A model generated the notes under the pieces. That model was not told the origin of the DNA and searched no databases. It saw nothing but the letters and a program-made list of their open reading frames with translations. Positions 17,787 to 58,596 of a stretch of 64,000 bases of DNA are shown here, piece after piece (position 1 is the stretch's first letter; each line of letters opens with the position of its first letter). This stretch comes from an uncultured Candidatus Saccharibacteria bacterium (GTDB lineage: Bacteria > Patescibacteriota > CAZHWT01), in NCBI GenBank assembly GCA_964554805.1, contig CAZKPX010000001.1, positions 124,818-188,817 on the forward strand, given 5' to 3'. The translations under genes were made by a program, and so were the position numbers.

Positions 17787-17817
17787 GAATCTGGACCGCT
17801 GCATCCGTAACAACTAT

Positions 17818-17864
17818 GAGGGTTGGTTAGCAATTTGGCTAACCAACCCTCGCATTCGTTTTAA
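17818..17864 (+). terminator. Strong rho-independent terminator (14-bp perfect stem GAGGGTTGGTTAGC / GCTAACCAACCCTC plus GCATTCGTTTTAAAAG)
   Basis: Inverted repeat and U tract seen directly. Confidence 0.65.
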
Positions 17865-18099
17865 AAGCATTATGTGATTGTAAGCACGCTAAGGCAGAGC
17901 TATAAAATCATATTGGCATGACTTGCACCTTAAAGTATGAACATGCAATAACTATTTAAAAGTATAAGATTTGACTCTTTGATCTACCTACTATATGGAG
18001 TATGAATTAGATACACCATACTCATTATATCTTATAGTTATTTACATAATGCTTCTTATATGTTAGTATACTATAGTTCCCTGTTGTTTAAGGCTTTGA

Positions 18100-34610: not shown

Positions 34611-34681
34611 AGCGGATGAGAGGATTCGAACCTCCAGCCTTCCCAGGAGTCGGGATGCTCTGCCTTTTGAGCTTCATCCGC
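34611..34681 (-). tRNA. tRNA-like gene with a non-canonical anticodon arm (4-bp stem, loop GACUCCU); isotype unassigned, possibly a pseudo-tRNA
   Basis: Perfect 7-bp acceptor stem (GCGGATG/CATCCGC). D arm GCTC-AAAAGGCA-GAGC. T arm GGAGG-TTCGAAT-CCTCT. The anticodon region is 2 nt short and lacks U33 and R37. Confidence 0.5.
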
Positions 34682-34697
34682 ACTTCCTCATGAAGGG

Positions 34698-34773
34698 CGC
34701 CCGCAGAGGGATTTGAACCCCCGATCTGCTCTTTACGAAAGAGCTGCTCTAGTCCAGGCTGAGCCACACGGGC
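34698..34773 (-). tRNA. tRNA-Thr (anticodon CGU)
   Basis: 76-nt cloverleaf. Acceptor GCCCGTG/TGCGGGC, anticodon stem GCTCT/AGAGC, loop TTCGTAA, T loop TTCAAAT. No encoded CCA. Confidence 0.8.
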
Positions 34774-34817
34774 GATATGCCGACTTGCTTTATGCTCTGG
34801 CGAAACCTGAGCAGTAG

Positions 34818-34891
34818 TGGGCGAGAAAGGATTCGAACCTCTGACCTCAGAACTGTCAGTCCTGCGCTCTTACCATCTGAGCTACACGCCC
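34818..34891 (-). tRNA. tRNA-Val (anticodon GAC)
   Basis: 74-nt cloverleaf. Acceptor GGGCGTG/CTCGCCC, D arm GCTC-AGATGGTAA-GAGC, anticodon loop CTGACAG, T loop TTCGAAT. Confidence 0.85.
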
Positions 34892-42854: not shown

Positions 42855-43084
42855 ACGAGCGAATATTGAATATGGGATATGGGATATGGGGTATGAAAGT
42901 TTATATCTAGAGACTTTTTAACACGCGTTTAGAGAAAATGCTAGTGAAGTAGGGTTTAGTGGTGATTTAAAACTTATACCGTAAAGGTCAAAACTGCAAC
43001 TTAAAACTAAAAACTCTGAGATTCGAGTTAGAAATTTTTGGTTGCAGTTTTGCCTTTTTCATCTTGAGTTTTACGTTTTAAGAC

Positions 43085-49790: not shown

Positions 49791-49903
49791 TCTCCTTGAT
49801 GATAAATAATTGTTTTAAGTATAGCAAATAAGATACTGGTTATCACCCAATAATACAAAAAGACGACTCAGTGAGTCGTCTTTTTGTTACCTATCGGCCG
49901 AAT

Positions 49904-52081: not shown

Positions 52082-52084
52082 ACT

Positions 52085-52180
52085 ACTTTGAAGGAGAAAG
52101 GAGAGGGATCCGCCAGTTGGCGGAGTGAGAAGTTCTTTTTAACTTCTTTTTCTGTTATCTCTTTTCTCTTATTATTCTTT
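52085..52180 (-). promoter_or_regulatory. GA/CU-rich leader element with two short hairpins immediately 5' of rnj
   Basis: GGAGAAAGGAGAGGG, CCGCCAGTTGGCGG hairpin, and GAGTGAGAAGTTCTTTTTAACTTCTTTTTCTG. Confidence 0.35.
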
Positions 52181-52313
52181 CTGGCCGAAAATCGGCCTAT
52201 TACTTACGATACGCCATGAAGCGCCTGTGGCGCGGATATTGGATATGGGGCATAGACAGATATGTTAGTCTATGTCCAGGTTGTGGCGTAAGGTTATTCA
52301 AAGGGGCACTGAG

Positions 52314-53435
52314 TTACCAGTTGGGCAAGAACTGCTTGATGTTCTGGGGCGTTATATAAAACTGCTGAGCCTGACCGCTGACCATTTGCAGAGCGATTTT
52401 TCGAACAAGGCCATTAATAATACGCTCCATAGTACGAATGCCTGCGTCAAAACCGAGCGGACGGACTAGCATGGGCCAGACCGCATCGTCCATAACGACG
52501 GAACCTTGAGGAATATTAGCAAATCCCAACTGCCGTGGAAAGAGGTACTCTCTGGCAATATGGATCTTTTCCTCATCAGTATAGCCCGGCATTTGAATGA
52601 CTTCGAGACGATCAAGAACTGCATTGGCAATGCCGTTGGTATTGTTGGCAGAAGCAATAAACAGCACCTCTGACAAATCGAAGGGATGATCGATATAGTT
52701 ATCGCTAAAGGCGTTATTTTGCTCGGGATCCAAGAGCTCGAGTAGCACACCCATGATTTCGGCTCGAGCACTTTCAGCTGTTCGGTCAATTTCATCGAGC
52801 AGAATGACGGGGTTTCTGACACCGACTCGACGCAGGGACTTTATAATTTGGCCCGGTTCGGCAGATGGAAGACTCCGACCCTGACCGCGCAATTGCTGAG
52901 CGGTGCCCATACCACCCATGGGGATACGAATGAAGGGACGGCCCAAGCTTTCAGCCACCGAGGCAGCAATAGAGGTTTTACCAATACCGGGCAGACCGAC
53001 AAAACATAGGATGGGTGATCGAGCGATGCCTGAGGCTTGACCACGAGATTGCATGATAAGGACGGATAAATGCTCCAAAATGCGCTGTTTGATCGGCAAT
53101 AAACCGTAGTGATGCTGATTTAGAACATCTTGAGCATACCGTAAGTCTAATATATCCTGATTCCTCTTGGACCATGGTAGGGCTGTTACCCATTCCACGT
53201 AGGCGTAGACCTCCTCATAGAGGTTGAGATACCCAGTAACGCCGGCTGAGCGATTGAGGCGGCCGACTGTGCCTTCGAGACGAGCTTGTAGCTCGGGCGG
53301 CAGGTCGGCTCCACTGATTGCCTGGAGCATGCTTTGCAATTCTTGAGTTAAAGGTGCGTCAACAGTAGGAACCGTACTGAGCTGCGGCTCAGTTGGTGCA
53401 GCGGTTGACCCTTGGGGCAGCTGGGCAGAATTCAT
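52314..53435 (-). CDS. Lon-like AAA+ ATPase lacking both the N-terminal LON domain and the C-terminal S16 protease domain
   Basis: YVEWVTALPWSK...LDLRYAQDVLNQHHYGLLPIKQRILEHLSV, Walker A GLPGIGKTS, ILLDEID Walker B, LELLDPEQNNAFSDNYIDHPFDLSEVLFIASANN, LDRLEVIQMPGYTDEEK. All are collinear with Lon. The protein ends at the AAA/protease boundary. Confidence 0.7.
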   Translation of the reverse strand: MNSAQLPQGSTAAPTEPQLSTVPTVDAPLTQELQSMLQAISGADLPPELQARLEGTVGRLNRSAGVTGYLNLYEEVYAYVEWVTALPWSKRNQDILDLRYAQDVLNQHHYGLLPIKQRILEHLSVLIMQSRGQASGIARSPILCFVGLPGIGKTSIAASVAESLGRPFIRIPMGGMGTAQQLRGQGRSLPSAEPGQIIKSLRRVGVRNPVILLDEIDRTAESARAEIMGVLLELLDPEQNNAFSDNYIDHPFDLSEVLFIASANNTNGIANAVLDRLEVIQMPGYTDEEKIHIAREYLFPRQLGFANIPQGSVVMDDAVWPMLVRPLGFDAGIRTMERIINGLVRKIALQMVSGQAQQFYITPQNIKQFLPNW

Positions 53436-53446
53436 ACAAGCTTAGT

Positions 53447-53491
53447 ATACATGATTTTGCTTAGCAAAATCATGTATACTAAGCGCGACTC
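53447..53491. promoter_or_regulatory. Perfect 21-bp inverted repeat GCTTAGTATACATGATTTTGC-TTA-GCAAAATCATGTATACTAAGC between pnp and the Lon-like gene
   Basis: Seen directly. It lies 12 nt upstream of the Lon-like start codon and about 70 nt downstream of the pnp stop. Confidence 0.5.
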
Positions 53492-53561
53492 GAATATAGA
53501 ATACGGAATATAGTTTGATGAATTTGACTACAACCGATATTCTATATTCACTATTCTCCGG

Positions 53562-55655
53562 CTAGGCTTGCTCCGGCTTCGGCAAGAGGGCTTTGCGGGA
53601 TAGATTGATTCGGCCTTGATCGTCAATCTTAACGACTTTGACGTTGACCATATCGCCTTCATTGACGACATCAGTCACGTTGTCGACTCGAGCATGCTCT
53701 AGTTCTGAGATATGAATCAGTCCGTCTTTGCCTGGAACTAGTTCGACAAAGGCACCGAAGTCCATAACTTTGACAACTTTACCAATATATTCTTCATCTA
53801 CCTTAATTTCCTTGGTGAGATTCTGGATCCATTCGATAGCTCGCTGCAAACCTTGAGGATTGTCGCTAGCAATAGTGACCGAGCCATCGTCTTCGATGTC
53901 GATTTGAGCGCCGGTTTCATCAATGATTTGGTTGATCATTTTGCCACCCGGTCCGATAACAATACCGATCAGTTTGGGATTGATCTTGATCATCTGAACG
54001 CGTGGTGCGTATTGTGACAATTCAGGGCGAACATCAGTGATGGTCTTCATCATTTCGTTGAGGATATGAGCTCGACCAACCTTGGCTTGAGCCAAAGCTT
54101 CTTGGAGAATCTTCTGGCTAATACCGGTTAATTTCATGTCTAGCTGGAGAGCGGTAATACCTTTGGAGGTACCGGCTACTTTGAAGTCCATATCGCCCAT
54201 GAAGTCTTCGAGACCTTGAATGTCGGACAGGATGGCATACTGATCACCGTCAGTGATAAGCCCCATGGCAATACCTGATACAGGAGCTGTGATTGGCACA
54301 CCGGCGTCCATGAGGGACATGGTTGAGCCACAGACAGAACCCATGGATGAGGAGCCATTGGAAGAGAGGGTTTCTGATACAACACGAATGGTGTAGGGGA
54401 ATGACTCTTCTGAAGGGATAACTGGCACTAAGGCGCGTTCAGCCAAGGCGCCGTGACCGATTTCGCGTCGGCTAACCGAACCAATGCGACGGACTTCGCC
54501 AACTGAGTAAGGAGGGAAGTTGTAGTGGTGGAGATACTTTTTGCTTGATTCGCCTTCCATGCCATCAATGATTTGGGCTAAGGAGGTTGAACCTAATGTG
54601 ACGACTGACAGGACCTGAGTTTGTCCGCGAGTAAAGAGAGCTGAGCCATGGGTTCGAGGCAACACACCAACCTGTGTCCAGATATCACGAACCTGATCGA
54701 GGCTGCGACCGTCTACGCGCTTCTTTTCGGTCAAGACGAGCTGGCGGACAACTTGCTTGACAGCCTTTTCGACAGCACCGGACATTTCCTTTTTAGTAGC
54801 GCGATCTTCAAACTTGGCCAGCACTTCGGCTTTGAACTCACCGACCGCATCTTCGCGAGAAGTTTTGTCTGGAGTCAGAAGACTGGTGGCTACATGTTCC
54901 TGAACATACTGATTAATTTCTTTTTCAAGTTCAGGGTCAATCTTGATGGCTTCAAAGGCATACTTTGTTTTACCTGCCTGAGACTTAAAGTCTTCGATGA
55001 GACTGACTATTTCAGAGATTTGTTCATGACCAGCCTGCATGGCGGTCAACATCTGTTCTTCAGTTACCTGATTGGCACCTGCTTCAACCATGGCAATGGC
55101 CTGATTGGTTCCGGATAAGGTCAAATCGAGATTGGTGGCTTGGCGATCAGCAGCTTGAGGATTGGTAACATAGTTGTCTTGACCTAACAGACCCATTCGA
55201 ACTGCACCGACAGGACCTGCCCATGGAATAGAAGAGATACTTAAAGCTGCTGAGGCTGCAATAACACTTAGGATATCTGGCTCGTTGTCGCCATCAATCG
55301 ACAGGACGGTAATGATTACCTGAACCTCGTTATAGAAGTCTTTGGGGAAGAGAGGGCGGATTGAACGATCGATGATACGAGCAGTTAAGGTGGCGTGATC
55401 GGTTGGACGGCCTTCGCGCTTGATGAAGCGTGAAGTGTGAATTCGTCCACCAGCGTATAGACGCTCAGCATATTCAACTGTTAAAGGGAAGAAATCCATG
55501 TCTTCTCTGGCTGTGGCGCTACAGACACTGGCTAGAACCATGGTGTCACCATACCGAGCTACTACAGCTCCATCGGCTTGTTCAGCCATGCGGCCAGTCT
55601 CTAATGACAGGGTTCGACCGGCAATTTGACGTTCGACTTTTATTGTTTTATTCAT
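53562..55655 (-). CDS. pnp: Polyribonucleotide nucleotidyltransferase (PNPase); start at the internal MNKTIKVE
   Basis: Two RNase PH-like domains, KH domain (IGPGGKMINQI), and S1 domain (GKVVKVMDFGAFVEL). Confidence 0.9.
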   Translation of the reverse strand: MNKTIKVERQIAGRTLSLETGRMAEQADGAVVARYGDTMVLASVCSATAREDMDFFPLTVEYAERLYAGGRIHTSRFIKREGRPTDHATLTARIIDRSIRPLFPKDFYNEVQVIITVLSIDGDNEPDILSVIAASAALSISSIPWAGPVGAVRMGLLGQDNYVTNPQAADRQATNLDLTLSGTNQAIAMVEAGANQVTEEQMLTAMQAGHEQISEIVSLIEDFKSQAGKTKYAFEAIKIDPELEKEINQYVQEHVATSLLTPDKTSREDAVGEFKAEVLAKFEDRATKKEMSGAVEKAVKQVVRQLVLTEKKRVDGRSLDQVRDIWTQVGVLPRTHGSALFTRGQTQVLSVVTLGSTSLAQIIDGMEGESSKKYLHHYNFPPYSVGEVRRIGSVSRREIGHGALAERALVPVIPSEESFPYTIRVVSETLSSNGSSSMGSVCGSTMSLMDAGVPITAPVSGIAMGLITDGDQYAILSDIQGLEDFMGDMDFKVAGTSKGITALQLDMKLTGISQKILQEALAQAKVGRAHILNEMMKTITDVRPELSQYAPRVQMIKINPKLIGIVIGPGGKMINQIIDETGAQIDIEDDGSVTIASDNPQGLQRAIEWIQNLTKEIKVDEEYIGKVVKVMDFGAFVELVPGKDGLIHISELEHARVDNVTDVVNEGDMVNVKVVKIDDQGRINLSRKALLPKPEQA

Positions 55656-55671
55656 ACTTGGTTGTGGGGCA

Positions 55672-55763
55672 GAAATCAAAGGGCAAAAGGCAAAGGGCAA
55701 AAATGTGTCAAGTTATATTTTTGACTTTCATTTTTGACTTTTGCTTTTTGACTTTTGACTTTC
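55672..55763. repeat. AAAGGGCAAAAGGCAAAGGGCAAAAA / TTTTTGACTTTTGCTTTTTGACTTTTGACTTT inverted-repeat element in the pnp 5' leader
   Basis: Arms at 55672-55705 and 55716-55763. Same unit family as 44465-44640. Confidence 0.4.
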
Positions 55764-58288: not shown

Positions 58289-58561
58289 TCAGAGCGCAGT
58301 CTAAAAAAGTGCTGTGCCCTAGTTGGACAAGATGAGGAACGAATTGTTAATTATGCTACAAGCCCCGCTTCTTATGTACTTAATAATCACAAAAAGCGGT
58401 TTTTAGGTTGGCCTTTTTGCAAGGCTTGCGCATAGTTCACTACTATTGAAGTAGTTCTTCAATAGTGCTTCCTCACTCTAATGACCTTTTGGCAATAGTG
58501 TCGAGTGAATGCACCAACAGTTAGTCATTGAGGATTAGCAGCCGCTACTCAGATGTAGGTA

Positions 58562-58596
58562 CAAAAAAGACGGCCATTGAGGGTCGTCTTTTTTGT
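58562..58596 (-). terminator. infB terminator (AAGACGGCC-ATTGAG-GGTCGTCTT flanked by A6 and T6)
   Basis: 9-bp stem with one G-U pair. Reads as a terminator on either strand. Confidence 0.55.

Follow-up and report, generated by a model that had tools for sequence, protein, structure and literature searches.

The pnp-AAA+ locus and its palindrome

The window examined in this study, that is, the whole stretch of DNA that was analyzed, is 64,000 nucleotides long. The genes at the locus of interest are all found on its minus strand. Upstream is pnp, the gene for polynucleotide phosphorylase (53562..55700, minus strand, with a TAG stop codon at 53562-53564), whose product carries RNase_PH, KH and S1 domains. 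Downstream lies a gene encoding a Lon-like AAA+ ATPase of 373 amino acids (52314..53435, minus strand), which contains AAA and Lon lid domains and lacks a protease domain; the gene for RNase J (rnj) comes next. The domains detected confirm the identities that an earlier note on this DNA had given to pnp and to the gene downstream. The ATG of the AAA+ gene is at 53433..53435 (minus strand), and this position can be considered fixed because an in-frame TAA is present 9 nt upstream and because the N-terminus of the protein, M-[N/D]-x-A, is conserved. Other genes of the neighborhood are nusA, infB, a DHH phosphoesterase gene, rpsO and ftsK.

Homologs of the AAA+ protein belong to the Patescibacteria (candidate phyla radiation), and those that bear a name are assigned to Shapirobacteria, Daviesbacteria, Amesbacteria and Microgenomates. 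The exact protein is encoded by one Logan contig and by one NCBI contig (446,789 nt), and the protein cluster defined at 90% identity contains a single member. For comparative analysis we used seven distinct orthologous loci with 72-87% identity in the AAA+ protein: L002 (87%), L090 (79%), L003 (76%, as L004 and L005), L006 (76%, as L007), L091 (73%), L092 (72%, as L093) and L008 (72%). The gene order DHH phosphoesterase, rpsO, pnp, AAA+, rnj, ftsK is found in all loci, as far as the contigs reach. Both in the window and in the seven distinct related loci of Patescibacteria, a Lon-like AAA+ protein devoid of a protease domain is encoded between pnp and RNase J; the fixed place of this gene in a cluster for RNA decay suggests that its role is tied to RNA metabolism. 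When metagenomes were scanned with the AAA+ protein, only distant relatives were detected (L009-L016), the best of them with 54% identity.

The spacer between pnp and the AAA+ gene harbors a perfect 45-bp palindrome, GCTTAGTATACATGATTTTGC-TTA-GCAAAATCATGTATACTAAGC. The earlier note had recognized this sequence as perfectly self-complementary, which is correct, but had placed it at 53447-53491; the palindrome is actually located at 53440..53484, 7 bases to the left. Its description as two 21-bp arms separated by a TTA loop is valid, and an alternative is to consider a single central nucleotide, 53462, flanked by arms of 22 nt (53440-53461 and 53463-53484). The gap between the palindrome and the ATG of the AAA+ gene, at 53435, is 4 nt and not 12 nt as previously reported.

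A palindrome of this length is indeed rare by chance, as the earlier note had assumed. No other perfect inverted repeat in the window is as long. First-order Markov replicas of the window (n = 30) had longest arms of 9.4 nt on average and of 12 nt at most, compared with 22 nt in the palindrome, and shuffling did not yield any match to the half-site. The next-longest perfect inverted repeats of the window, with arms of 16 and 15 nt, are both canonical terminators.

Perfect palindromes that exceed the k-mer size are difficult for de Bruijn assemblers, and inverted chimeras can arise during amplification. A perfect palindrome might on these grounds be a product of assembly or amplification, an explanation that we consider extremely improbable. 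The same sequence is found in a Logan contig of a sequencing run and in the NCBI contig, although both may derive from the same reads. Furthermore, the palindrome is flanked by different, intact genes in syntenic order, which is not the configuration of a folded-back contig, and the length of the spacer matches that found in the relatives.

The gene-proximal arm contains the predicted promoter of the AAA+ gene

When the pnp-to-AAA+ spacers of the window and of the seven relatives were compared, they turned out to be unalignable except for one block, whose invariant columns are TATA-T and ATG. In the relatives, without exception (7/7), the block consists of TGn-TATA(C/A)T, a gap of 6-9 nt and the ATG. 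The individual sequences are TGT TATACT AACCAAGT ATG in L002, TGC TATAAT AAAACAGT ATG in L090, TGC TATACT AACTTT ATG in L003, TGT TATACT TGATAAGAT ATG in L006, TGG TATACT AAAAAT ATG in L091, TGG TATACT AAGCTA ATG in L092 and TGG TATACT ACACAT ATG in L008. The window reads ATG TATACT AAGCTTGT ATG, with a -10 box (TATACT, 53444..53449, minus strand) 8 nt upstream of the start codon.

This conserved -10 box is contained in the gene-proximal arm of the palindrome (53440..53461, minus strand), which reads AGCAAAATCATGTATACTAAGC and includes TATACT together with the 13 nt upstream of it. The outer part of the arm, GTATACTAAGCT, is common to the window and L092. Hence, the gene-proximal arm appears to be the AAA+ gene's own core promoter, with the -10 box located 8 nt from the ATG, a circumstance that had been missed in the earlier note. 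One peculiarity of the window is that the TG of the extended -10 element is displaced by 1 nt and abuts the hexamer (ATG-TATACT), whereas the seven relatives have the TGn-TATACT arrangement.

The extended -10 element appears to be of general use in this genome. In the window, TGnTATA[AC]T occurs at seven sites, compared with 2.7 expected; all seven are found between genes and face a gene whose start is 28-129 nt away, and because of such locations TGnTATA[AC]T can be viewed as the working promoter type of the genome. The AAA+ gene is exceptional in having its -10 box only 8 nt from the ATG. As to translation signals, most genes of the source genome have leaders and Shine-Dalgarno sequences, and a Shine-Dalgarno sequence is found in 34 of the 59 genes of the window, while none precedes the AAA+ ATG in any locus, be it that of the window or those of the relatives. 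Leaderless translation needs unstructured mRNA downstream of the -10 box, and the RNA just downstream of the AAA+ -10 box is unstructured (z = +1.0).

The combination of a -10 box 8 nt from the ATG (6-9 nt in the relatives), lack of a Shine-Dalgarno sequence and a conserved start codon constitutes the signature of a leaderless mRNA transcribed from an extended -10 promoter, with a start site that we infer from sequence. The AAA+ gene resembles known genes of this class in the presence of TGnTATA(C/A)T 6-9 nt from a conserved ATG, in the lack of a Shine-Dalgarno sequence and in the unstructured 5' coding region, and the layout is kept across the window and the seven distinct related loci. It differs in the window by the one-base shift of the TG and in that its start site is a predicted one. 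Among the distant loci L009-L016, the layout is visible in L013, L011 and L016, and ambiguous in the others. A sigma-70 -35/-10 scan around the site detected nothing, and direct reading of the sequence did not reveal an acceptable -35 hexamer 16-18 nt from TATACT. The strength of the AAA+ promoter in the window is uncertain, as it lacks the correctly spaced TG found in every relative.

The distal arm of the palindrome (53463..53484, minus strand) is the exact reverse complement of the promoter arm, and it has no counterpart in any of the seven relatives. As a consequence of symmetry, a mirror-image TATACT is found at 53475..53480 on the plus strand. It would be a divergent -10 box, oriented toward an imperfect hairpin and the 3' end of pnp, and a transcript initiated from it would be antisense to pnp.

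The palindrome might also be a switch acting at the DNA level, either as a bidirectional promoter or as a promoter gated by a cruciform. Antisense RNA would be made across the 3' end of pnp in the first case, and cruciform extrusion driven by supercoiling would hide the -10 box and silence the AAA+ gene in the second. Exact mirroring covers the -10 hexamer with 13 nt on its upstream side and 5 nt on its downstream side, so any promoter activity residing in this segment would be expected in both directions. In addition, the centre of the palindrome is AT-rich and the predicted DNA hairpin has a free energy of -20.7 kcal/mol. An engineered Escherichia coli promoter controlled by cruciform extrusion was reportedly described by Horwitz and Loeb in 1988. 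However, neither -10 box has the correctly spaced TG that characterizes the clearly identifiable promoters of the genome, the arrangement lacks a counterpart in the relatives, and the plus-strand product would have no canonical terminator. We thus regard a switch of this kind as quite improbable. A more elaborate version is hardly easier to accept: RNA polymerase would choose between a leaderless ATPase mRNA and a pnp antisense RNA, and the balance would be set by cruciform extrusion under supercoiling or by a lineage-specific dimeric protein. If it were true, a protein-remodelling ATPase would be coupled to PNPase control in a bacterium with a minimal genome.

A miniature version of mirrored -10 boxes was observed elsewhere in the window. 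The 8-bp palindrome AGTATACT (18065-18072), located in the divergent intergenic region 17814-18099, contains TATACT back to back on both strands. Judging from its arrangement, AGTATACT can be described as a compact, natural bidirectional -10 box and as a small analogue of the mirrored -10 boxes of the 45-bp palindrome.

The palindrome is unique in the window and absent from orthologous loci

The earlier note had suggested that the palindrome might be the operator of a dimeric repressor, for instance a heat-shock regulator. The perfect dyad symmetry is that which a dimeric DNA-binding protein would select, and the palindrome overlaps the -10 box, a common target of repressors. Expansion of inverted repeats at promoters can alter gene expression and its regulation, with a precedent in yeast (PMC13100816). 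A lineage-specific repressor might thus cover the -10 box and switch the Lon-like ATPase gene, for instance under stress.

Several observations argue against such a view. The palindrome is absent from the seven distinct orthologous loci (7/7) in spite of the conservation of the promoter. A search for additional copies of the half-site, as the earlier note had advised, yielded none in the 64-kb window, within which the palindrome is unique: neither a second nor a partial half-site was found, the best other match having 7 mismatches in 22 positions, the same as in random replicas. Furthermore, none of the 8-12-mers of the half-site recurs in the 64-kb window together with an inverted partner. 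No gene for a transcription factor lies beside the locus; helix-turn-helix proteins encoded in the window are limited to one RodZ-like and one NUDIX-wHTH protein, at a distance of 8-11 kb, and the window also encodes a receiver-only response regulator. Usual operators are much shorter and less perfect than a flawless repeat of 45 bp. Altogether, the existence of a heat-shock-type operator finds no support, and a lineage-specific operator seems unlikely.

Comparison with the CIRCE element, the target of HrcA, deserves mention, as in both cases a gene with a link to protein quality control is preceded by an inverted repeat. The differences are, however, substantial. CIRCE has 9-bp arms and a 9-bp spacer, while the repeat found here is perfect, spans 45 bp and is not conserved upstream of orthologs. 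The palindrome is unrelated to TTAGCACTC-N9-GAGTGCTAA, in agreement with the earlier note, and a CIRCE scan of the whole window allowing up to 3 mismatches did not yield any match.

The search was also extended to genome collections. An 18-mer of the half-site gave 14 single matches, all in unrelated organisms, among 185,579 species genomes, and a rough estimate predicts about 17 by chance. Both arms together were not found in any of the 185,579 genomes, a collection to which the source genome does not belong. Other candidates were examined and discarded. An origin in a mobile element or phage was rejected because a viral 16-mer scan and BLAST against phages gave either single matches at chance level or none. 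The possibility of a dispersed palindromic repeat of the REP or MITE type was discarded as well: the window contains the palindrome only once, matches in the collections of genomes and viruses are single and at chance level, and phages contain none. Comparison with consensus sequences alone led us to reject also a dif/Xer site, an integron attC site, a Fur box and a CodY box, which have the wrong consensus or the wrong spacing. In Rfam searches of the window only tRNAs passed the gathering threshold, and a permissive local search gave generic microRNA-precursor hairpins as best matches, with 14-23 bits against thresholds of 62-100.

RNA structures in the pnp-to-AAA+ spacer

The RNA of the whole pnp-to-AAA+ spacer is predicted to fold into two adjacent stem-loops (z = -7.4 to -9.9). 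One is formed by the palindrome, whose RNA hairpin has a perfect 21-bp stem and a free energy of -29.5 kcal/mol (z = -11.9) and accounts for 95% of the ensemble. The other is an imperfect, AT-rich stem-loop directly after the stop codon of pnp (53492..53556, minus strand), made of 13 bp, a 1-nt bulge, 3 bp and an inner 6-bp stem, with a free energy of -21 kcal/mol (z = -6.1). An imperfect inverted repeat close to the palindrome had been pointed out before and it is real, but what separates it from the palindrome is 7 nt and not about 30 bp. Its arms show a 7-nt periodicity, with (GAATAnn) three times on one arm and (TATTCnn) three times on the other.

Stem-loops after pnp are also found in the spacers of the relatives. 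They are significant in 5 of the 7 loci (z between -3.4 and -5.7), their sequences are unrelated, and none is accompanied by a U-tract. The hairpin of L002 spans the pnp stop codon and is therefore partly outside the spacer that was scored; L003 is the only locus without a clear hairpin. The imperfect repeat of the window sits where the stem-loops of the relatives sit, and the perfect palindrome must therefore be viewed as an additional element. We also noticed that the post-pnp hairpin of L092 contains GAATATCG...CGGTATTC; hence, part of the imperfect stem may be ancestral.

The proposal that the palindrome is a strong bidirectional terminator did not stand. Its stem has around 33% G+C and is followed by CUUGUAUG, without a U-tract, and a terminator scan of 52800-54200 gave no hit, either at the palindrome or as a canonical terminator after pnp. 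Canonical terminators, with a G+C core and A and U tracts, do exist in the window at 49855-49887, after the gene for RNase J, and at 58561-58596, after infB. Read-through from pnp into the spacer is likely because a canonical terminator is not found after pnp even though the genome uses terminators of this kind elsewhere. A conserved operator and a canonical terminator can both be discarded as identities of the palindrome.

A third possibility contemplated in the earlier note, a site of RNA processing, remains plausible in view of the predicted 21-bp hairpin. A duplex of around 20 bp or more is expected of an RNase III substrate, and the palindrome would provide an uninterrupted duplex of 21 bp if the stem is transcribed, as read-through from pnp would permit. 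The perfect duplex of 21-22 bp attains the length preferred by RNase III, and most relatives have a stem-loop in the same spacer. Likeness to the protective and processing stem-loops found at 3' ends in bacteria, as in the rpsO-pnp operon of E. coli, lies in the long, stable stem, in the location in a spacer of the pnp operon and in the lack of a U-tract. There are differences too: the RNase III hairpin of E. coli precedes the coding sequence, in the 5' leader of pnp, while the hairpin described here follows pnp and its sequence is not conserved. An RNA thermometer was discarded for two reasons: the stem does not include the AUG, and physiological temperatures would not suffice to open 21 bp with a free energy of -29.5 kcal/mol.

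Origin of the palindrome

Template switching during replication has been documented in bacteria as a process that enlarges inverted repeats and makes them perfect (PMC5941160), and it can create RNA stems in one event (PMC8794818). We therefore considered that the palindrome might have been formed by a single switch of this type, in which DNA polymerase would briefly copy the opposite strand or the nascent strand. A template-switch origin is proposed because a perfect reverse-complement copy adjoins its template, because the copy is absent from orthologs and because the length of the spacer is unchanged. As read from the sequences, the post-pnp hairpin and the -10 box are separated by 42 nt in the window and by 38 nt in L092, and for this reason conversion of existing sequence fits better than insertion.

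The palindrome shares relevant traits with inverted repeats attributed to template switching (quasipalindrome correction; the Ripley model). It is perfect and short, with a near-absent spacer; one arm is the original sequence and the other its reverse complement, and orthologous loci lack the repeat; moreover, spacer length is unchanged when compared with that of L092. On the other hand, arms of 22 nt are among the longest that are usually reported, the host is an uncultured Patescibacterium, and the relatives available here are distant. We rate the palindrome as a probable template-switch-type perfect inverted repeat at a promoter or operon spacer, which is a known kind of element.

Traces of a precursor were sought in the relatives. 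In L092, a hint of an ancestral quasi-palindrome (ATTTTGC...GCAtAAT) is found at the same offset from the -10 box; with p = 0.06 against shuffles before correction for seven comparisons, it is not significant and at most suggestive. The same alignment test gave p values above 0.5 in the other relatives, whose sequences upstream of the -10 box are very diverged; even the nearest relative, with 87% protein identity, is unalignable upstream of the -10 box. The sequence that preceded the event is thus beyond reconstruction from relatives this diverged.

Duplication of a different kind was observed in L091. At around 2973-2995 of this locus, the -10 region is duplicated in direct, not inverted, orientation (CATACTAAA ttgg TATACTAAA). 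The direct duplication may be another sign that this promoter segment is prone to local duplication.

Predicted consequences of the palindrome

Taking these observations together, we interpret the palindrome, with moderate confidence, as a lineage-specific inverted duplication of the AAA+ core promoter, probably made by template switching and acting mainly as RNA. Its most probable working effect would be the addition of an extra, very stable stem-loop to transcripts that read through pnp. Such transcripts would carry two adjacent stem-loops, an older one (53492-53556) and a newer one formed by the 21-bp hairpin of the palindrome, which would end 4 nt before the AUG. Both stems would block 3'-to-5' exonucleases, and that of the palindrome would be long enough to serve as RNase III substrate. 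Owing to the stem-loops, the mRNA of pnp would have a defined and more stable 3' end. Translation of the AAA+ protein would proceed from its own leaderless transcript, which would start just downstream of the gene-proximal arm and would not contain the hairpin. As a side effect at the DNA level, the mirror -10 box could give rise to antisense RNA that runs into pnp from its 3' end. In this scheme we infer not only the start site of the AAA+ gene but also read-through of pnp and the 3' ends.

The main rival explanation accepts the same inverted duplication and denies it any selected function, either as DNA or as RNA. The palindrome would then be a neutral relic, perfect because it is recent, and bound to decay. 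A single recent event is expected to yield perfect arms (PMC8794818), and the palindrome is unique to one genome, in agreement with the lack of other members in the 90% protein cluster. Since the relatives do without the palindrome, and a post-pnp stem-loop is present in the window anyway, the new hairpin may indeed lack a selected function. However, a hairpin of -29.5 kcal/mol placed 4 nt from a start codon and accompanied by a mirrored -10 box inside a housekeeping operon for RNA decay is unlikely to be without effect, and the presence of stem-loops in the spacers of most relatives (L003 lacks a clear one) suggests selection for structure. Hence, a neutral relic is a possible but somewhat doubtful explanation, and an inverted duplication acting mainly as RNA is the interpretation we favor.

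Whatever its effect, the palindrome is a peculiarity of one genome, built from the AAA+ gene's own promoter, and it is both real and statistically striking. If the favored interpretation is correct, the locus would provide a natural example of a single template switch that turns a core promoter into a perfect hairpin, yielding in one step a stem-loop in RNA, a mirrored -10 box and a site prone to cruciform formation, all within a housekeeping operon for RNA decay. Its relevance is modest and concerns the ways in which regulatory structure arises in very small genomes; a new regulatory system is not revealed. A more durable by-product of the analysis is the conserved promoter layout, which implies a leaderless AAA+ mRNA between pnp and RNase J in this clade of Patescibacteria. 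Together with the post-pnp stem-loop without a U-tract (L003 excepted), the leaderless layout can be useful to annotate promoters and operon punctuation in uncultured bacteria of the candidate phyla.

Additional features of the window

Other sequence features were detected near the locus and elsewhere in the window. In the 5' leader of pnp (55719-55762, minus strand), just upstream of the start of the gene, the 7-nt sequence GTCAAAA is repeated in tandem in approximately 6 copies (AAAGTCAAAAGTCAAAAAGCAAAAGTCAAAAATGAAAGTCAAAAAT). A speculation is that the repeat could be bound by ribosomal protein S1, or else by PNPase, which would then regulate its own gene.

The spacer between the AAA+ gene and the RNase J gene (52082-52313, minus strand) is 232 nt long and strongly structured (z = -6.4). 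The structure includes pairing between a long polypurine run and a polypyrimidine run that directly precedes the RNase J ATG, and this ATG lacks a Shine-Dalgarno sequence. The spacer may thus be a regulatory leader for RNase J.

At 42968-43073, between the genes for the NUDIX-wHTH protein and a YtxH-like protein, there is an imperfect inverted repeat with 49-nt arms that are 71% complementary and separated by 8 nt. Finally, Rfam identifies three consecutive tRNA genes in the region 34611-34891, while ARAGORN identifies two (Thr-CGT and Val-GAC); the third Rfam tRNA (34611-34681, 50.6 bits) may be an atypical tRNA.
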